Sequence record: NC_028780.1
Length of the DNA: 64,000 bases
From: Escherichia phage slur07
Direction: 5' to 3' (one strand)
Shown here: piece after piece, positions 6,969 through 63,623 of the stretch
How positions within the stretch are numbered: the stretch's first letter is position 1
Layout: each line of letters opens with the position of its first letter
The notes under the pieces: generated by a model
Databases searched by the model: none
Told to the model about the DNA's origin: nothing
Seen by the model: the letters and a program-made list of their open reading frames with translations, nothing else
Made by a program: the position numbers and the translations under genes

Positions 6969-9059
6969 ATGATGGAACTCATTACAGAATTATTTGACGA
7001 AGATACTACTCTTCCGATTACAAACTTAAATCCAAAGAAGAAAATACCACAAATTTTTTCAGTTCATGTTGATGATGCAATTGAACAACCAGGCTTTCGT
7101 TTATGTACCTATACATCTGGAGGTGATACTAATCGCGATTTAAAAATGGGCGATAAAATGATGCATATCGTTCCTTTTACATTAACTGCAAAGGGGTCAA
7201 TTGCTAAATTAAAGGGTCTTGGACCGAGTCCTATTAATTACATCAATTCAGTATTTACCGTAGCAATGCAAACAATGAAACAGTATAAAATTGATGCATG
7301 TATGCTACGCATTCTTAAGTCTAAAACCGCCGGTCAAGCTCGACAAATTCAACTTATTGCTGATAGACTTATCCGTAGTCGTTCAGGTGGCAGATACGTC
7401 CTTCTTAAGGAACTCTGGGATTACGATAAAAAGTATGCATATATTCTTATACATCGTAAAAACGTATCACTAGAAGACATTCCAGGAGTTCCAGAAATTA
7501 GTACTGAACTCTTTACTAAGGTTGAATCGAAGGTCGGTGATGTTTATATCAATAAAGATACTGGAGCCCAAGTAACTAAAAATGAGGCAATTGCAGCATC
7601 AATTGCACAAGAAAATGATAAACGTTCTGACCAAGCCGTAATCGTTAAAGTTAAAATTTCCCGTAGAGCAATTGCGCAAAGTCAATCATTGGAATCTTCT
7701 AGATTTGAAAGTGAATTATTCCAGAAGTATGAATCTACCGCAGCTAATTTCAATAAACCTGCTACCGCTCCTTTAATTCCCGAAGCAGAAGAAATGAAGC
7801 TTGGAATTAATTCATTAGCTTCTAAAACTAAGGCAGCAAAAATTATTGCTGAAGGAACTGCAGATGAACTTCATTATGACTATAAATTCTTTTCAAAAAG
7901 TGAGGTTAATGAAGTTTCTGAAAAAATTAAAGATGTAATTCTTAATGCGATTAAAAATGAACCAACTACTTCAATAAAATGTTTAGAGAAATACGCAGCA
8001 GCTGTTAATCAACTCTTTGAAGAATATAAAGATAATTGGCTTGATAAACATAATAAAACTCGTAAAGGGCAGCCAGATGAAGTCTGGGAAGAAATAACTA
8101 AAAATGCCTGGAATGCAGCAAAAACTAAATTCCTCAAAAGAATGATTTATAGTTTTTCTGGAATTGGTGCAGGTCCAATGATTGATATTACTATTGCCCG
8201 TGATGGTTCTAAATATACTCCATCACAAAAGCGCGGCATTAGAGAGTATTGTGGTTCAGGATATACTGACATCAATAATCTTCTTTTAGGTCGTTACAAT
8301 CCAGAACGATATGATGTAATGAGTGAAAAAGAAATTGAATCTGCTATAAATAATTTAGATTCAGCTTTTGAAAATGGTGACCGCATACCGGAAGGCATTA
8401 CAGTTTATCGTGCTCAAAGTATGACTGCTCCTATATACGAAGCGCTAGTTAAAAATAAAGTGTTCTATTTCAGAAATTTTGTATCTACTTCTTTAACTCC
8501 TATCATTTTTGGGCGTTTTGGAATTACACATGCTGGTATTGGTCTTTTAGAACCAGAAGCTCGTAATGAATTGACAGTTGATAAAAATGAAGAAGGAATA
8601 ACTATTAATCCAAACGAAATAAGAGCGTATAAAGAAAATCCTGAATACGTTAAAGTTCAAATAGGATGGGCAATTGATGGAGCTCATAAAGTTAATGTTG
8701 TATATCCAGGAAGTCTAGGAATAGCAACAGAAGCTGAAGTTATTCTACCGCGTGGATTGATGGTCAAAGTTAATAAAATAACTGATGCTTCTAATAATGA
8801 CGGAACCACGTCTAATAATACAAAACTCATTCAAGCTGAAGTTATGACCACCGAAGAACTCACCGAATCGGTAATCTATGACGGAGACCGTTTAATGGAA
8901 ACCGGCGAAGTAGTTGCAATGACAGGTGATATAGAAGATAGAGTTGACTTTGCATCATTTGTTTCATCAAATGTTAAACAGAAAGTAGAATCATCTCTTG
9001 GAATTATTGCGTCTTGCATAGATATTACAAACATGCCTTACAAGTTCGTTCAAGGATAA
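6969..9059 (+). CDS. alt: Alt ADP-ribosyltransferase (virion-packaged, modifies host RNA polymerase)
   Basis: 696 aa; N-terminus MELITELFD... matches recalled T4 Alt; ART motifs YRAQS (R), FVSTSL (STS), TEAEVILPRG (ExE); start may be second ATG at 6972. Confidence 0.9.
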   Translation: MMELITELFDEDTTLPITNLNPKKKIPQIFSVHVDDAIEQPGFRLCTYTSGGDTNRDLKMGDKMMHIVPFTLTAKGSIAKLKGLGPSPINYINSVFTVAMQTMKQYKIDACMLRILKSKTAGQARQIQLIADRLIRSRSGGRYVLLKELWDYDKKYAYILIHRKNVSLEDIPGVPEISTELFTKVESKVGDVYINKDTGAQVTKNEAIAASIAQENDKRSDQAVIVKVKISRRAIAQSQSLESSRFESELFQKYESTAANFNKPATAPLIPEAEEMKLGINSLASKTKAAKIIAEGTADELHYDYKFFSKSEVNEVSEKIKDVILNAIKNEPTTSIKCLEKYAAAVNQLFEEYKDNWLDKHNKTRKGQPDEVWEEITKNAWNAAKTKFLKRMIYSFSGIGAGPMIDITIARDGSKYTPSQKRGIREYCGSGYTDINNLLLGRYNPERYDVMSEKEIESAINNLDSAFENGDRIPEGITVYRAQSMTAPIYEALVKNKVFYFRNFVSTSLTPIIFGRFGITHAGIGLLEPEARNELTVDKNEEGITINPNEIRAYKENPEYVKVQIGWAIDGAHKVNVVYPGSLGIATEAEVILPRGLMVKVNKITDASNNDGTTSNNTKLIQAEVMTTEELTESVIYDGDRLMETGEVVAMTGDIEDRVDFASFVSSNVKQKVESSLGIIASCIDITNMPYKFVQG

Positions 9060-9062
9060 ATC

Positions 9063-11120
9063 ATGGAACTTATTACAGAATTATTTGACGGCGCTTCGGC
9101 GCCGGTTGTTAACTTAAATCCTAAGCATAAAATACCACAAATTTTTGCTATCCAAGCCGGCGAAGAAAGCGTGCTTCCTGGATTTAGATTTTGTACATAC
9201 ACCTCTGGTGGTGATACAAATAAAAACGTTAAGCCAGGCGATAAAATGATGCATATCGTAATGATAGGTGTCAATGAGAAACTATCATTAGTTAAGCTTA
9301 AAAACTTGGGTGGAAATCCAATTGGTGTCATTAATGCCGTTTTTGATACTGCTCTTCAAACAATGAAACAGTATAAAATCGACGCATGCCTATTCCGCGT
9401 ACTAAAGAGTAAAACAAATGGCGCAGCTCGTCAAATGCAAGTTATTGCTGACCGTTTAGTACGTACTAAAGGAGCAGGTCGATATGTTCTCTTAAAGGAA
9501 ATCTGGGACTATGATAAGAAATATGCATATATTATGGTTTACCGTAAAAATGCCAATTTAGAAGACATTCCAGGTGTACCTCCTATTTCAACTGAGTTAT
9601 TCACAAAAGTTGAATCAAAGGTTGGTGATGTTTATGTAGACGTTAAAACAGGTAATGCTGTTCCTAAAGCTGTCGCTGTTGCTGCTTCTATTGCTTTAGA
9701 AAATGATAAGCGCACTGATCAAGCTGTTATTCAGAAAACTAAAATTAGTCGTCGATTAGCAGCACAAGCTCAATATTCTACTGTTGATGCTTCACTTCAG
9801 GGTGATAGCTTCGCTGCCAAGAAATATCAAGAGTTTGAATCTAAAGTTCCGGTATATAAAGCAGAAGGACCAATGAACTCTGGCGTTATCCAGATTGGTT
9901 CAAACTTCAGCAAAGGAGCTATCGGTGGTATGAGAAGTGCTTCTCGTTTTAAATCTAATGATTATGAACTAGAAAGTTTCCGAAATCATATTGCATTGAC
10001 CCATGCACGTTTACGCGATCCATCTATCAAGCTGCAGAGCGATATAACATATCAAGGTTCTCAAGAATATTTAAAGAATAAAGAATTCTTTGATTATAAA
10101 ACTGATAAAATTTTAAGCGATCTTGCTGACATTAATATTTCTAATAGCTTTGATGTTATTAAGAAAATTATCAATGATTTAGTTAAAGATTCTAAAGCTA
10201 CATCAGATGAAAAGACAGCTATTATTCAATTTGTAATGAATGGCATTTATAAATTGATTAATGAATCTGCTGCTCAGGCATATGAATACGCAAGCACCGA
10301 AGTAACTCCAAAAGGACTGACTCAGGCTGAATCTGATGTAATTGAAGATTATTGTGCAGATTCATATGTTGAAATGAACTCGTTCCTTTTGGGTAAACCA
10401 GATTCTACCCGTGAAGAATACATGGAAAGAGCTATTAATCACATCGAGACGTTAGATTCTGCCTTTGCCAAAGGATCAGTTCTTCCTCCAGGAACTACAC
10501 TTTACCGTGGACAAGAAGTTACCTTTAAAACTTTGCGTCATAACATTGAAAACAAAATGTTCTATTTCAAGAACTTCGTATCGACATCACTTAAACCAAA
10601 TATCTTCGGTGAGCATGGTAAAAACTATATGGCTCTAGATGATTCCGGCGCAGTATTTTCTGGCGAAGGAGAAGGTTCCGTTGATGCAGAAGATTTAATG
10701 CATATGGGTAGTCATTCTACATATGCCAATGAAGATGCTGAAACTAGCGTAGGTATGGTAATTAAAGGGGCTGAGCGAATCAAAGTTATCGTTCCAGGTC
10801 ATTTATCAGGATTTCCATCAGAAGCTGAAGTTATTCTACCACGTGGAATTTTACTGAAGATTAATAAAGTAAGTACGTACTTTATGAAAGAAACTGCTTA
10901 TAACAAGTATCTAATCGAAGGTACAATCGTTCCTCCTTCTGAACAATTAGAGGAATCGGTATATGATGGCGACCATTTAATGGAAACTGGTGAAGTTCGT
11001 CCAATGGCTGGATTTAATCAATTCCTTGTAGAAGAATCAAAAGAAGAGGAAAACGAAGTTTCTCAAATCTTGGCTTCTTTGGTTAACATCAACGGAATGT
11101 CTAAAAAGTTCAAAATGTAG
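9063..11120 (+). CDS. Alt-like ADP-ribosyltransferase paralog
   Basis: 685 aa, starts 3 nt after alt stop; shares MELITELFD N-terminus, QTMKQYKIDAC, and C-terminal YRGQ / FVSTSL / SEAEVILPRG motifs; central ~200 aa divergent. Confidence 0.85.
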   Translation: MELITELFDGASAPVVNLNPKHKIPQIFAIQAGEESVLPGFRFCTYTSGGDTNKNVKPGDKMMHIVMIGVNEKLSLVKLKNLGGNPIGVINAVFDTALQTMKQYKIDACLFRVLKSKTNGAARQMQVIADRLVRTKGAGRYVLLKEIWDYDKKYAYIMVYRKNANLEDIPGVPPISTELFTKVESKVGDVYVDVKTGNAVPKAVAVAASIALENDKRTDQAVIQKTKISRRLAAQAQYSTVDASLQGDSFAAKKYQEFESKVPVYKAEGPMNSGVIQIGSNFSKGAIGGMRSASRFKSNDYELESFRNHIALTHARLRDPSIKLQSDITYQGSQEYLKNKEFFDYKTDKILSDLADINISNSFDVIKKIINDLVKDSKATSDEKTAIIQFVMNGIYKLINESAAQAYEYASTEVTPKGLTQAESDVIEDYCADSYVEMNSFLLGKPDSTREEYMERAINHIETLDSAFAKGSVLPPGTTLYRGQEVTFKTLRHNIENKMFYFKNFVSTSLKPNIFGEHGKNYMALDDSGAVFSGEGEGSVDAEDLMHMGSHSTYANEDAETSVGMVIKGAERIKVIVPGHLSGFPSEAEVILPRGILLKINKVSTYFMKETAYNKYLIEGTIVPPSEQLEESVYDGDHLMETGEVRPMAGFNQFLVEESKEEENEVSQILASLVNINGMSKKFKM

Positions 11121-28589: not shown

Positions 28590-29399
28590 TTAGAAACGAG
28601 ATGCGACTTTCGCATATACACTTACAATATCTTCTGCACCAGGTGCAGCTTTATCTTCTACAGCTTCAGTGACGAAATTCAGTCCGGCTGCTTCAGTATC
28701 AGGAGTATTTATACTCTCAGTAATAGTGCTTTCATCTTTATTAGATTTCTTCACCATTTCTACGATTGCACTCAATTTACTTGAGAATGCATCTGAATAA
28801 TCCATACCTTCGACCAGAGCAGAGACTTTTTCTTTTTGAGACTCAGTCAGATCTTTAGTACTTTCGCTCAATGCCACTTCACGCTGCACATAATTGATAT
28901 ATGCGTCACGCTTATTGAGTTCTTCGAACAGACGAGCTGATTCTTCTTTATGTTCTTGCAGCTCTTCTTCCATTTCAGCTACAACATCAACTGATTCTTC
29001 TGGAACAACAACGTTGTGTTCAACAAAGAGCTCTTTTAATCCACCAAGCATGGATTCAAACAGTTCGGCTTTGATGCCTTTATCAACTGCTAATTTATTT
29101 TCAGCGAGCCATTCTTTTGCAAGATGGTCAATGAATTTAGAAGCTTGCTCAGCGATTTTCTTCTCAGCTTTTTCTTCGGCTTCTTCTTTATTTTTTTCTA
29201 CTTCTTCTTCTGCTTTTTCAGCAATTTTAGCGATATGAGATTCAGCTAATTTAACGGCGTGCTGCTTGACGGTAGCTTCGAATACAGTGCCGAAAGTTTC
29301 TTTTGCTTCCGGAGAAATATTAACTGATTCGAAAATACTATCAAGAGCAACGGAAGCATCAATTTTCTGCGCTTCAGCAATCAGTTGTTCTTTAAGCAT
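28590..29399 (-). CDS. 22: prohead core scaffold protein
   Basis: 269 aa, highly acidic coiled-coil, T4 gp22 size. Confidence 0.9.
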   Translation of the reverse strand: MLKEQLIAEAQKIDASVALDSIFESVNISPEAKETFGTVFEATVKQHAVKLAESHIAKIAEKAEEEVEKNKEEAEEKAEKKIAEQASKFIDHLAKEWLAENKLAVDKGIKAELFESMLGGLKELFVEHNVVVPEESVDVVAEMEEELQEHKEESARLFEELNKRDAYINYVQREVALSESTKDLTESQKEKVSALVEGMDYSDAFSSKLSAIVEMVKKSNKDESTITESINTPDTEAAGLNFVTEAVEDKAAPGAEDIVSVYAKVASRF

Positions 29400-29429: not shown

Positions 29430-30068
29430 TTATAACGCTTTTTTCATGGCCTCTGCGAGAGCCATATAGGCGTCATCGGCACTTGTATCGGCTTCCGCCG
29501 TCTGTGATTCGGTAATTTCCTTAGGAGTTACCCATGCATCTGGAGCACTTGGACCCCATACTGCATCAACACCTACAGTTAATTTGAATCCTTCGTTTAC
29601 GATACGATAACCTTTATTTGTGTCAGTCAATGAACCTAATCCACGAGAAGAAACTCCTGGAATCCATCCGGCACGAATATTAGCTGCTAATTTATCTCCA
29701 GGACCATGGTCACCTTCAATAACACGAGCTCGTCCGTATACGTCATTTCCTTTCCACCACATATCTTCTATAATGATAGCGGCTTGCATCGGGTCAACAT
29801 TAGCGCGTGGAGGATGATTTAATTCTCCGAGAGCTTGTTTAGTTAAAACTTGCTCATTAATATAGTCTTTTACCGCTTTTTCTAATATACGTTTTGGATA
29901 AAGACGTTTATTTCTATTGACGACTTCCGCTTGCATGAATATTCCTTCGATGTATAAACCCGGTTTTAAACCTAAGTCTTTTCCATCGTGAGATTCAAGC
30001 ATTGGCACGCCATCAATAATTTCGCCAGGTTGACCCCAAGTTTCAATTAGTAATTGGGGTTCATTCAT
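29430..30068 (-). CDS. 21: prohead core protease
   Basis: 212 aa, T4 gp21 size; gene 22 late promoter (29427-29434) abuts its 3' end. Confidence 0.9.
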   Translation of the reverse strand: MNEPQLLIETWGQPGEIIDGVPMLESHDGKDLGLKPGLYIEGIFMQAEVVNRNKRLYPKRILEKAVKDYINEQVLTKQALGELNHPPRANVDPMQAAIIIEDMWWKGNDVYGRARVIEGDHGPGDKLAANIRAGWIPGVSSRGLGSLTDTNKGYRIVNEGFKLTVGVDAVWGPSAPDAWVTPKEITESQTAEADTSADDAYMALAEAMKKAL

Positions 30069-59016: not shown

Positions 59017-59051
59017 GTTGTTTACATGGGGTTTTAGTAGTGATACTATTA
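59017..59051 (+). promoter_or_regulatory. early promoter / stem-loop cassette (GTTTAC ... TGATACTAT within GGGTA...TACCC)
   Basis: GTTTAC -35, 17 nt spacer, extended -10; 24 nt identical to copy at 59331. Confidence 0.5.
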
Positions 59052-59067
59052 CCCTATCAAAACAAAT

Positions 59068-59319
59068 GTGAAATTGGAGAACAAAATGAAAACGTATCAA
59101 GAATTTATTGCTGAAACTGCTGATGTAAAAGTTGAGTTTATTTACACTGGCAAGAAAGATAAAATGGGTGAAATGCCTCATGGAGTTCTTCGTGATGCAT
59201 TAGATGATTTCGGTCAACTCGGTGGTGAAGAGTTTGGCGATTACTTTGTTATCTATGGCCCGGCAAAAGTCATTGAGAAATGGGCTGATAAATATAAATC
59301 AATTTTTCGTAAAAAATAA
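59068..59319 (+). CDS. candidate capsid-targeted internal protein (IP-like, 83 aa)
   Basis: N-terminus MKTYQEFIAE matches recalled capsid-targeting sequence ending in an I-A-E gp21-type cleavage site. Confidence 0.7.
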   Translation: MKLENKMKTYQEFIAETADVKVEFIYTGKKDKMGEMPHGVLRDALDDFGQLGGEEFGDYFVIYGPAKVIEKWADKYKSIFRKK

Positions 59320-59320
59320 G

Positions 59321-59355
59321 TTTACTTTTAGATAGGGTAGTGATACTATTACCCT
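59321..59355 (+). promoter_or_regulatory. early promoter / stem-loop cassette, second copy
   Basis: GTTTAC + 17 nt + TGATACTAT; shares GTAGTGATACTATTACCCTATCAA with 59017 cassette. Confidence 0.5.
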
Positions 59356-59377
59356 ATCAACTACCGAGGAGAATAAA

Positions 59378-59563
59378 ATGAAACGTTGTGAATTAATTCG
59401 AAATGTTGCTATTGCAATTTCTGCTTCTGCATTTAGTTTTTCAATGTTTGTTGGATTTATATGCGGATTATTGACTACAGCAGAAAATGTATTTTCACTT
59501 GTAGTAGCATTTTTAATTGGTTTAATTGCTATCGTTATGGATAAAATTTCTAAAGGTGAATAG
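59378..59563 (+). CDS. small hydrophobic membrane protein (61 aa, two predicted TM helices)
   Basis: Strongly hydrophobic; GGAGAATAAAATGAA initiation cassette. Confidence 0.55.
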   Translation: MKRCELIRNVAIAISASAFSFSMFVGFICGLLTTAENVFSLVVAFLIGLIAIVMDKISKGE

Positions 59564-59566
59564 AAT

Positions 59567-59945
59567 GTATAAAGTGTACGCTGATTATCAGGCTAATCCA
59601 TCTGAAAAGCCAGATTGCCAAATTGGATGGGCTCATGATACCCTGCTTGAAGCAGTAGATGCTGCTCAAAAATTAGGATATAGTTATGTAGATATTGTTC
59701 AACCTGGTGGAACAGTTATTACTCTTGAAGAGTTTAATAATATTAAACCAAACTTTTTACTTTTTGCAGGTGATAATTATTATCCTCGTGGTGGATATGC
59801 TGATTTAATCGCGAAAGCCGCTACCGAAGATGAACTCCGTGATATTATCAAAGAAAATGAAAACAAACCGATGTATGGTTCTAATCGCTTTGATTGGTGG
59901 CAAATTGTAAATGCCCACACTCATACTATTGTTGATGAAGGCTGA
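59567..59945 (+). CDS. hypothetical protein (126 aa)
   Basis: ATG 59567 with AAAGGTGAA RBS (track ORF from 59526 overlaps upstream gene). Confidence 0.5.
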
Positions 59946-61086: not shown

Positions 61087-61737
61087 ATGACTCGTCGTGA
61101 GACGCTCAGTTCTTTATTAGGGACTGATATGCATTTTTATCTTTATAAAATAACAAATAAAATTAATAATAAAATTTATATTGGTGTGCATTCTACCGAA
61201 AATTTAGATGATGGATATATGGGTTCTGGTAAATTATTAAAAAGAGCCCAAGATAAATATTGTATAGAAAATTTTTCTAAAGAAATATTAGAGTATTTTG
61301 ACGATAAAGAATCTATGCTTGAAGCCGAGAAAAATATTGTCACAGAAGAGTTTTTAAATAGACCAGATGTGTATAATTTAAAACTTGGAGGTGAAGGTGG
61401 ATGGGATCATATAAATAATTATCCTATGACAGATCAGCAACGCGAATTAATTTCATTGGGTGTTAAAAAGGCACATTCTAACGGAAAATTAAAAGGATGG
61501 TCTTCAAATGGATTAATGAAGAATGGCTTTGCTGGTAAAACTCATTCTCAAGAAGCTAAACGTAAAATAGCAAAAGCAAACGAAGCAAAAGTTTCTGCGG
61601 ATGAAAGAAAAAGAAGAATAGAAATTTCTAAATTATATGATTTTTCTAAACGTGGCGAATTGTCTAAATATGCTAAGCATATTGGCGTAAGTCATACTCA
61701 AGCAAAAAGAATTCTAAATCAAATTAACAATATATAA
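61087..61737 (+). CDS. segB: GIY-YIG homing endonuclease embedded in tRNA cluster
   Basis: ORF between tRNA-Gly and tRNA-Ser; FYLYKITNKINNKIYIGVHS GIY-YIG module and DDGYMGSGK shared with segE; start may be ATG 61129. Confidence 0.82.
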   Translation: MTRRETLSSLLGTDMHFYLYKITNKINNKIYIGVHSTENLDDGYMGSGKLLKRAQDKYCIENFSKEILEYFDDKESMLEAEKNIVTEEFLNRPDVYNLKLGGEGGWDHINNYPMTDQQRELISLGVKKAHSNGKLKGWSSNGLMKNGFAGKTHSQEAKRKIAKANEAKVSADERKRRIEISKLYDFSKRGELSKYAKHIGVSHTQAKRILNQINNI

Positions 61738-62173: not shown

Positions 62174-62249
62174 CGAGGCATAGCTCAGAAGGAAGAGCAA
62201 GGACCTTCTAAGTCCTGGGTCGTAGGTTCGATCCCTACTGCCTCGACCA
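62174..62249 (+). tRNA. tRNA-Arg (anticodon UCU)
   Basis: Acceptor CGAGGCA/TGCCTCG, anticodon stem AGGAC/GTCCT with loop CTTCTAA, T-loop GGTTCGATCCC, CCA. Confidence 0.85.
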
Positions 62250-62565
62250 GACAAGAAGCCGGGTCGCTACCGGCAAGTCGTCGGACTGATGTTCCCTGTT
62301 TAAGGACTGGCATTAATAAATCTTTATGTTTTGTTAATGCCCCCTTATATCACAGCAGAAACGGCGCACCGAATTATCGATTCGAGGAAATATCTTTGCC
62401 ATAAGCCGAGTAGCGTTTTTGACGGAACGTTCGGATATGGTCGAGATATGGCCTTTTAAAAATATTGAGTAGCGTCAACTACTTAATAACCGGGTTCGAA
62501 TCCCGGCGTTTCGTACAAACACTTGCCTTAGCAGGTGGAACCCCGACAAGGTTGCCGCAAGGCTT
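62250..62565 (+). ncRNA. structured non-coding region after tRNA-Arg: candidate small stable RNAs or degenerate tRNA
   Basis: No credible ORF; tRNA-like T-arm CCGGGTTCGAATCCCGG at ~62490; 8 bp inverted repeat GGCATTAA...TTAATGCC at ~62309-62341; ends at intrinsic terminator. Confidence 0.35.
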
Positions 62566-62593
62566 AGCCCCGACCGAAAGGTTGGGGCTTTTT
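62566..62593 (+). terminator. intrinsic terminator (AGCCCCGACC-GAAA-GGTTGGGGCT plus TTTT)
   Basis: 10 bp stem, tetraloop, T-run; near-identical copy at 63125. Confidence 0.75.
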
Positions 62594-62643
62594 AGTATAA
62601 ATATAGTAGTATATTAAATCCACGAATTAAAACAGGAAATAAG

Positions 62644-63117
62644 ATGAAATCATATGCTCAATTTTTAAATGAAGCGGTGTTAAATGAAGCATCTAGCACC
62701 GAAATTCAAGCTGTCGCAAAAGCAGCCATTGCAGCGGGTAAATATTCCTATAAAGATGCTTCTGACGAATCACGATTCCAATTTGCTCGCGACATGAAAG
62801 CAGAAGGATTTACGGGAAATGCAGTTAGTATGGCCTGGAAAAGTTTAGTTGCTACTGGCGCTGCTTTTGCAAAGGCTTCGGGTAAACCTGCTCCTAAAGC
62901 AGATCCTAAAGTCACACAAGAGAAAAATATCGTTAAAGGAATTATCTCCAGATATGAAGCTATCCTTAAAGAGCTTTTAGTAATCAAAACTGAAGGTCAA
63001 AAGTTAGCTCGTGCTTATAGTTTCAAAGATAATCCACATGCTCATGACCTAGAGTATGTTGAAGACATCCAAAAAATTATTAAAGACCGCATTTGGTCTG
63101 CTAAACAAATCAAATAA
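62644..63117 (+). CDS. hypothetical protein with capsid-targeting-like N-terminus (157 aa)
   Basis: N-terminus MKSYAQFLNEAVLNEA resembles the MKTYQEFIAE internal-protein leader; Ala/Lys-rich; flanked by twin terminators. Confidence 0.6.
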   Translation: MKSYAQFLNEAVLNEASSTEIQAVAKAAIAAGKYSYKDASDESRFQFARDMKAEGFTGNAVSMAWKSLVATGAAFAKASGKPAPKADPKVTQEKNIVKGIISRYEAILKELLVIKTEGQKLARAYSFKDNPHAHDLEYVEDIQKIIKDRIWSAKQIK

Positions 63118-63124
63118 CATTCTT

Positions 63125-63152
63125 AGCCCCGACCAAAAGGTTGGGGCTTTTT
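63125..63152 (+). terminator. intrinsic terminator, second copy (loop AAAA)
   Basis: Same stem as 62566-62593, T-run. Confidence 0.75.
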
Positions 63153-63287
63153 GGTATCTAGGCCTTTCCGGGCCTCTCTAGGCATCATTTAGTTTATACC
63201 CTTTATAATATATTATCCTACCTTTTAATTGCCCCTCCTGACCCTAGAATTCCCTAAAACTTTTTAAAAATTTTTTCACAAAACTGT

Positions 63288-63322
63288 TTACATCCCTGTT
63301 CTTCCATGGTACTATACAACTA
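63288..63322 (+). promoter_or_regulatory. T4-type early promoter (GTTTAC ... TGGTACTAT)
   Basis: GTTTAC, 17 nt spacer, extended -10. Confidence 0.45.
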
Positions 63323-63358
63323 TCAACTACTGATACAGAAAAACAACTTGGAGAATGA

Positions 63359-63623
63359 AATGGATAATTACGGCGAACTGTTCAACTTCTTTATGAAATG
63401 CGTTTCAGAAGATTTCGGTCGTACAGTGAATGATATTAAAGTTATCGGTCCTGACCATCCGATGTTTGAAACCTACGCAGTAATGGGTAATGAAGATGGT
63501 CAGTGGTATACTGTAAAAGTTGTGATTAATATGTTCACAGCTGAAAGTTATGTTAAACTGTCTTCTAAAGTTTACCACGATAACGACGAAATCGCAGAAG
63601 AATATTTCAATAATATGAAATAA
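63359..63623 (+). CDS. hypothetical early protein (88 aa)
   Basis: ATG 63359 with GGAGAATGAAATGG initiation context; track ORF from 63306 is likely over-extended. Confidence 0.55.

Follow-up and report, generated by a model that had tools for sequence, protein, structure and literature searches.

What is the small gene that lies between the stable RNA block and gene e.8 of Escherichia phage slur07 (sequence record NC_028780.1), and why is it bracketed by two near-identical intrinsic terminators? The gene, ORF157, is an open reading frame (ORF) for a protein of 157 residues; the window, to which all coordinates refer unless a locus is named, is the whole analyzed stretch of 64,000 nucleotides. 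A first-pass annotation had offered two readings, another injected internal protein or a cassette gained by recombination between the repeated terminators. The two belong together rather than being alternatives. Judging from its sequence features, the ORF157 product probably belongs to an unnamed family of T-even internal proteins (IPs) that is targeted to the capsid and cleaved by gp21; our confidence in its injection and in a role against host defense is lower. The family is called unnamed here, and earlier literature may mention it.

The leader of ORF157 and its predicted processing

The N-terminus of the ORF157 product, first described as a near match to the leader pattern K-[ST]-Y-x-[EQ]-F-[IL]-x-E, fits this pattern exactly. 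A six-frame scan of the window for a strict form of the pattern, M-K-[ST]-Y-x-[EQ]-F-[IL]-x-E, finds two places, the gene of the ipI locus (59086) and ORF157; 100 shuffles of the window yield 0 occurrences. Tyr4 and Phe7 of the ORF157 leader occupy the targeting positions, and Leu8 and Glu10 the processing positions, of the capsid targeting sequence (CTS) as mapped for IPIII (PMC9026906). According to the same review of Black laboratory work, IP propeptides comprise 10–19 residues, with targeting determined mainly by residues 4 and 7, and processing by residues 8 and 10 (PMC9026906). Propeptides of 10–19 residues are normal, since the T4 IPI leader, translated from the T4 record as MKTFKEFTSTTTPVSTITE↓A (the arrow marks the cleavage site), reads MKTFKEF...ITE↓A. 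The site LNE↓A occurs twice in ORF157, and hence, by a test on the sequence only, gp21 is predicted to cut after Glu10 (62671–62673) and/or Glu15 (62686–62688). The doubling stems from an in-frame tandem duplication (Table 1) that is not present in the 153/154-aa alleles of loci L004, L006, L007, and L011.

The leader determinants, with position 4 aromatic, Phe in position 7, and [LIV]-x-E following, are retained in most relatives, down to approximately 25–40% identity. Examples of distant leaders are MINFSDFLNE, MKSFSSFLNE, and MLKFNEFLAE; in the Klebsiella leader MKFKEFLAE, the determinants are shifted by one residue toward the N-terminus, and M-T-E stands in place of [LIV]-x-E in two relatives. 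In leader-only profile searches, the family leaders match positions 1–20 of PHROGs of internal head/virion proteins, with E-values of 0.0025 and 0.0028 for the allelic leader of L008, and the matched PHROGs overlap those matched by the leader of the ipI-locus gene.

A comparison of two occupied loci, L009 with a 157-aa ortholog and L008 with a 205-aa relative, reveals a common 113-nt block, 98% identical, that spans the hairpin, the T-run, the octamer TATAAATA, the Shine-Dalgarno (SD) sequence, and codons 1–16. Right after ...L[T/N]EA, the predicted cleavage site, identity drops to 25–32%, and the protein bodies are approximately 27% identical. By this comparison, the leader behaves as a separate exchange module ahead of highly diverged mature parts. 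The 205-aa and 187-aa neighbors were also considered as unrelated bodies behind a common leader; this was rejected, as a PHROG scan identifies them as remote members of PHROG 2280, the family of ORF157, hence the wording "highly diverged bodies".

The ORF157 product as a candidate internal protein

ORF157 is a real gene under purifying selection, as pairwise dN/dS values (ratio of nonsynonymous to synonymous substitution rates) for six orthologs are 0.03–0.19 and homologs are found by tblastn in 510 phage records. Identity in these matches is 95–100% in most Tequatroviruses and about 75% in Mosigvirus-type phages; homologs in Klebsiella T4-like phages show about 50% identity across the N-terminal half. 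The product matches PHROG 2280, "unknown function", with E = 1e-59. Among the cluster members read, the source names are almost all "hypothetical protein", while one UniRef entry from a Klebsiella phage is "Internal head protein". The family is narrow, since only 13 relatives, all of phage type, emerge when 1.8 billion representative proteins are searched with a profile. That ORF157 is no functional gene, with a leader matched by chance, is refuted: the missing annotation, and nothing else, speaks for it, against the dN/dS values, the 510 records, the PHROG match, and the lack of the motif in shuffled sequences.

The description of the protein as Ala/Lys-rich is confirmed (Ala 16.6%, Lys 12.7%). 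The AlphaFold model is all-helical, with a mean pLDDT (predicted local distance difference test score) of 75, and begins with a leader helix of low confidence, followed by an N-terminal domain of three helices (residues 18–71), a Pro/Lys linker, and, at residues 88–154, a long hairpin of helices. In the 205-aa relative (L008, 1958–2090), the linker, which reads PAPKADPK in the window protein, has grown to about 40 residues of KPAKPAKAPVAKPAAQPKVAAPKPTPKPEPVKEAPK; the expanded form is reminiscent of basic tracts of the histone-H1-like or TonB-like kind, and association with DNA within the head would agree with it. Searches of Pfam, NCBIfam, and PDB sequences give no match above noise for the ORF157 product, and Foldseek searches against BFVD and PDB return family members or insignificant matches only.

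Evidence from virions is provided by Yersinia phage fD1, whose protein g140 differs from the ORF157 product by six substitutions in 157 residues. It is listed as phage-particle-associated by liquid chromatography coupled to tandem mass spectrometry, with no T4 homolog (supplement of PMC8309999). The fPS-2/65/90 paper contains no virion proteome.

Several points weigh against assignment of the product to the IPs. The fD1 list is unspecific, comprising about 40–50% of the fD1 gene products, including DenV, lysozyme e, and NudE (PMC8309999), and, as it contains non-structural proteins, the detection is supportive only. The leader of the window protein itself gives a weak profile match (E = 0.06), and the late promoter octamer TATAAATA upstream of the gene is not rare in an AT-rich genome (9 copies expected per window). 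ORF157 is dispensable, since several phages carry truncated or frameshifted variants (P0006, P0008, P0009, P0019, P0075, and P0079). No similarity of the product in sequence or fold to Ip1–3 or to any characterized protein was found; here, the answer is that IPs are mutually unrelated outside the leader. Finally, the literature describes two IP loci, with IP genes absent elsewhere (PMC2839356), and ORF157 lies between rnaC and e.8; location, however, describes the known IP genes and is no part of their mechanism.

As for the variants themselves, the frame shifts in P0006, P0008, and P0009 occur near the A-run that follows ...AQEK, at about 62918–62930 of the window (GAGAAAAATATC), and the truncated or frameshifted forms may be either real pseudogenes or homopolymer sequencing errors. 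A further form, P0014 (94 aa, on a 2.9-kb contig), is a fusion of an N-terminus similar to the trna.3 homolog (59526–59945 in the window) with ...KENPHAHSLEYVEDIQKIIKDRIWSAKQIK, the C-terminal end of ORF157; two short similar stretches would then have been the end points of a deletion that removed the entire tRNA block.

The leader and the fD1 data bear on the reading of the ORF157 product as an unpackaged protein of the cytoplasm, made late, with the leader kept not as a targeting signal, but as part of a recombination/translation-initiation module of neighboring cassettes. Indeed, the 113-nt block joins the promoter, the SD sequence, and the leader, so that homogenization at the DNA level could alone keep the leaders of close relatives alike; the presence of clearly non-structural proteins in the fD1 list points in the same direction. 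However, the leader determinants persist in most of the 25–40% identity relatives, whose DNA has lost its resemblance; homology breaks off at the predicted cleavage site; and the leaders match the profiles of internal head proteins. Hence, we consider a cytoplasmic protein unlikely.

A role as an accessory of the prohead core, similar to gp67/gp68 or gp22, would involve the same targeting and gp21 cleavage, the protein being mostly degraded or expelled at maturation rather than serving as an injected effector. Here the leader and the cleavage logic are alike; moreover, a third [LIV]-x-E site (LKE, residues 108–110) is seen within the C-terminal hairpin, and the C-terminal half, helical and akin to a coiled coil, is similar to scaffold-type folds, although only in a generic way. 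On the other hand, the gene is dispensable, absent in T4, and truncated in some phages; copy number and form vary at the locus, which fits accessory host-range proteins better than assembly factors; and peptides were detected in preparations of mature fD1 virions. A core accessory thus seems improbable.

In sum, the proposal of an internal protein draws support from a number of independent lines at the sequence level and from a single published virion proteome; cleavage, packaging stoichiometry, and injection have the status of predictions.

Twin terminators and the unit between them

The twin terminators initially reported are borne out: the same 10-bp stem with loops GAAA (T1) and AAAA (T2) occurs 559 nt apart, with ORF157 in between. 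Both stems, with 7 G–C pairs out of 10, a tetraloop, and a U-run, have the features of Rho-independent terminators, and the hairpin is present in two copies in the whole window, with 0 expected by chance. T4 carries the T1 hairpin at the corresponding place. T1 is predicted to end the tRNA/stable RNA transcription unit, and T2, the late transcript of ORF157.

The octamer TATAAATA occurs 25 times in the window, where 9 occurrences would be expected. Its position after the hairpin T-run is kept in most Tequatrovirus/Mosigvirus-type loci, two others having ATAAATAG instead, and the arrangement "GGGGCTTTTTAGTATAAATA" is kept even in a locus of a Klebsiella phage; the locus of Yersinia phage fHe-Yen9-01 has no TATAAATA element in the same comparison. 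A scan of the interval between T1 and the start codon finds no early-type promoter. We take TATAAATA upstream of ORF157 as a putative late promoter; late transcription from it would suit assembly of the product into the prohead.

T4 has no ORF at this site: rnaC is followed by a single hairpin, then by TTTTTGGTATCTA... and the e.8 promoter. Relative to the window, T4 lacks exactly one repeat period (559 nt), and the joint lies in the terminator. The empty configuration with the junction inside the hairpin is also seen in RB6, JE01, and Mosigvirus phiEC1. An 81-nt probe across the T4 junction matches end-to-end in 65 of 465 records and is split in the remainder; accordingly, about 86% of the records with the T1-type terminator lack the T4-type empty junction. 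Locating the T4 crossover by the GAAA versus AAAA loop was ruled out, as many phages have GAAA in both copies.

Occupied slots take several forms. At loci L005 and L012, ORF157 and T2 are followed by a 187-aa paralog (MKTYAEFLTEAAK...), itself present in 165 phage records. At L008, a DUF7338 gene lies between twin hairpin-plus-TATAAATA modules and is followed by the 205-aa form; at L009, ORF157 is followed by the DUF7338 gene; and at L007, the latter is reduced to a fused start-plus-end remnant (downstream of 2267). The DUF7338 gene (PHROG 2143) thus shifts its position in the Mosigvirus-type slot: it stands before the CTS gene in L008 (1136–1690), and after it in L009 (1805–2380) and L011. 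In Klebsiella phages the same slot reads tRNA block, hairpin plus TATAAATA, gene, and e.8-like to nudE cluster.

Between the window and L004, the flanks are 97–100% identical and the inside 65–85%; the left break lies at the terminator/promoter, and the right one within the 3' coding end of ORF157. Comparative genomics therefore places cassette boundaries at the terminator for the left break and for the T4 junction, but not for the right break against L004. Of the idea of a gained cassette, presence or absence relative to T4 stands, as one repeat period with its junction in the terminator, whereas the comparison does not favor gain as the direction.

Regarding this direction, ORF157 is more likely old at the slot, and the empty site of T4, a deletion between the repeated terminators, because the same slot with the same hairpin-plus-TATAAATA is found across genera and approximately 86% of the records are without the empty junction. 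In the opposite scenario, a circular or donor segment with one terminator recombined into a T4-like single terminator, which yielded the twin terminators. Indeed, a circle inserting into a resident copy would produce two near-identical terminators, as PeSL cassettes are proposed to do through mini-circles (PMC2839356). Mosigvirus-type loci and the Klebsiella phage have another hairpin as downstream terminator, so that the duplicate T2 is largely confined to Tequatrovirus-type loci (L006 also has a near-copy), and allelic replacement between near-identical flanks is what the comparison with L004 shows. Still, the family occupies the same slot behind hairpin-plus-TATAAATA across genera; presence of the gene is the commoner state, and probably the older one; and the simpler of the two events is loss by deletion between the 36-nt direct repeats. 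We therefore rate gain as the origin of the occupied state as rather doubtful. Recurrent loss, gain, or replacement has probably occurred at the slot elsewhere; gain and loss are one reaction in two directions, and both may have happened repeatedly.

The closest parallel is provided by the PeSL mobile regulatory cassettes of RB49 and phi1 (Arbiol et al., 2010; PMC2839356). In both systems, repeated regulatory elements with a GGGG...CCCC-type stem-loop terminator flank a non-essential ORF; relatives (here T4, RB6, JE01, and phiEC1) have a single element in place of element–ORF–element; and the units are transcriptionally insulated. The PeSL promoter is of the sigma-70-like early class, whereas the ORF157 cassette has, downstream of the hairpin, a predicted late promoter of the T4 type (TATAAATA), and, unlike in PeSL, its common module reaches into the coding leader. 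Apart from the promoter class, the recombination logic apparent from the sequence matches the PeSL model. The ORF157 cassette also resembles lambdoid moron insertions (promoter–gene–terminator) in being a self-contained unit between two transcription units; unlike in morons, its boundaries are repeated homologous sequences able to mediate gain or loss, and the unit follows the local direction of transcription.

Known internal proteins, genomic setting, and significance

The T4 proteins IPI, IPII, and IPIII (Ip1–3), ip4–ip13 of other T-even phages, and the ORF157 product share a propeptide running from M-K-[ST]-[YF]-x-[EQ]-F... to [LI]-x-E↓A, with conservation of positions 4 and 7 (targeting) and 8 and 10 (processing). 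Further common features are a small basic product, a dispensable gene, and a highly polymorphic locus, with exchange of the body behind a retained leader; moreover, slur07, like phages with T-even IPs, encodes both gp21 and gp22. The ORF157 product differs from the T-even IPs in that no sequence or fold similarity extends beyond the leader, the cleavage site is duplicated, and the gene occupies a third locus, between rnaC and e.8, rather than the loci between 57B and trna.4 and between denV and e. The flanks differ as well: an intrinsic terminator plus putative late promoter for ORF157, and early-promoter/AT-rich stem-loop repeats for the ipI locus of the window. At the latter, the gene at 59086–59319 (MKTYQEFIAE..., an internal virion protein of PHROG 8111) has on either side one copy of a 41-nt direct repeat (59020–59060 and 59320–59360). 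The repeated unit is an early-promoter/stem-loop element (GTTTAC...TAGTGATACTATTACCCTATCAA), and a repeat is also seen for the SD/start region; this agrees with the flanking elements of IP loci in the literature.

Each of Ip1–3 inhibits one distinct GmrSD nuclease, and ip4–10 were screened and yielded no reproducible hit (PMC12373910); in the accessible part of the supplementary material of that paper, the ORF157 family is not found. The ORF157 product is IP-like on every feature readable from sequence; packaging, cleavage, and injection are predicted by likeness, and any GmrSD-type target would be hypothetical.

We propose the following course of events. ORF157 would be transcribed late, from the TATAAATA promoter abutting T1, and the N-terminal 10–15 residues would act as a CTS directing the product to the prohead scaffolding core. 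The gp21 prohead protease would remove the leader after Glu10 and/or Glu15 (LNE↓A); cleaved in this way, the fD1 ortholog would begin with AVLNEASSTEIQAVAK or ASSTEIQAVAK. The basic, helical product of ~15.6 kDa would remain in the head with the DNA and be ejected into the next host, acting most plausibly against host defense, by analogy with Ip1–3. The gene would form part of an optional unit (late promoter, leader, body, terminator) bounded by repeated hairpins, and recombination between the repeats would delete it (the T4 state), swap it, or add further units.

The region of slur07 is 99.9% identical to Escherichia phage vB_Eco_Geo and 96–97% identical to many Tequatroviruses; the window is from a Tequatrovirus. 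On its plus strand, the order is gene 3, gene 1, 57A, 57B, the ipI-locus gene, homologs of trna.4/.3/.2, tRNA genes split by a GIY-YIG endonuclease gene, rnaD/rnaC, the interval studied, e.8, and further genes. The location of the interval directly after the tRNA/stable RNA block is thereby verified: it is immediately preceded by nine tRNA genes, with tRNA-Arg at 62174–62249, and the rnaD/rnaC region. The latter was located by comparison with the annotation of T4 and RB6. RB6 has an identical layout (tRNA-Arg, rnaD, rnaC, then the terminator), and a search of Rfam matches no family in the rnaD/rnaC region or in the interval. The features of the locus are given in Table 1.

Table 1. Features of the ORF157 locus and related genes in the slur07 window.
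Feature	Coordinates	Strand	Description
ORF157	62644..63117	+	157 aa, 17.3 kDa, isoelectric point (pI) 9.4; PHROG 2280 member; ATG start; begins MKSYAQFLNEAVLNEA / MKSYAQFLNEAVLNEASS
Leader, capsid-targeting-like propeptide	62644..62688	+	MKSYAQFLNE↓AVLNE↓, codons 1–15; pattern scan
In-frame 15-bp tandem duplication	62665..62690	+	TTAAATGAAGC twice, doubling the LNE↓A site; repeat search
Predicted mature protein	62689..63114	+	Residues 16–157, 15.6 kDa, pI 9.5; three-helix domain, PAPKADPK linker, C-terminal helical hairpin
Direct repeat, copy 1	62563..62598	+	Contains T1; 36 nt, 94% identical to copy 2, spacing 559 nt
Direct repeat, copy 2	63122..63157	+	Contains T2; repeat search
Intrinsic terminator T1	62566..62594	+	Hairpin AGCCCCGACCGAAAGGTTGGGGCT (62566–62589), GAAA loop, TTTTT; -20.3 kcal/mol, z -4.2
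Intrinsic terminator T2	63125..63153	+	Hairpin AGCCCCGACCAAAAGGTTGGGGCT (63125–63148), AAAA loop, TTTTT; -19.5 kcal/mol, z -4.5
T4-type late promoter octamer	62596..62603	+	TATAAATA, perfect match; directly after the T1 T-run, 40 nt upstream of ATG
Shine-Dalgarno sequence	62634..62638	+	AGGAA, 5 nt before the start codon; read from sequence; conserved among homologous loci in alignment
rnaD/rnaC-like stable RNA region	62251..62515 (limits approximate)	+	After tRNA-Arg; near-identical to T4 sequence annotated rnaD/rnaC
Right flank	63287..63623	+	Early-type promoter (63287–63315) and e.8 homolog (63360–63623); in T4 contiguous with the single terminator
Gene 21, prohead protease	29433..30068	-	Peptidase_S77, Pfam E = 1.5e-111; predicted leader-removing enzyme
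gp22 scaffold gene	28593..29399		T4_CASP (Pfam); adjoins gene 21

Some further observations concern neighboring genes. The GIY-YIG/NUMOD3 homing-endonuclease gene (seg-like, 61087–61737, plus strand) separates tRNA-Gly from tRNA-Ser; in phage NBG2 this place is taken by tRNA-Pro, and T4 segB is located elsewhere in the tRNA cluster. tRNA-Pro is not found among the tRNA genes annotated in the window. Two tandem Alt-like ADP-ribosyltransferase genes (Pfam ADPrib_exo_Tox) are present at 6969–9059 and 9063–11120 (plus strand). The second has a loose CTS-like motif, MAGFNQFLVEE, at 11004, 38 residues before the C-terminus; according to a review, gp21 also processes T4 Alt, at the C-terminal end (PMC9026906), and the region of the motif could be a candidate C-terminal propeptide.

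Although annotated as hypothetical, the ORF157 family is present in most sequenced Tequatroviruses; it was overlooked largely because the model phage T4 lacks the gene. Since each of T4 Ip1–3 was recently shown to block a GmrSD-type restriction system of its own, proteins of the IP kind are prime host-range candidates in therapeutic T4-like phages, and the family is a testable candidate effector in this respect. PHROG 2280 is spread over several hundred genomes of Tequatrovirus, Mosigvirus, and Klebsiella T4-like phages, T4 not being among them. A tentative extension, to which we give less weight than to the IP assignment, is that it may constitute a widespread unrecognized class of injected T-even effectors against defense not covered by Ip1–3, with the terminator/late-promoter/leader block as a payload-exchange module at a third IP locus. 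The 16-residue leader would be a natural variant of the CTS tag used for loading foreign proteins into T4 heads. The locus would add a third IP-type locus to the two described, and its regulatory-plus-leader module illustrates well how payloads are exchanged at a recombination joint.

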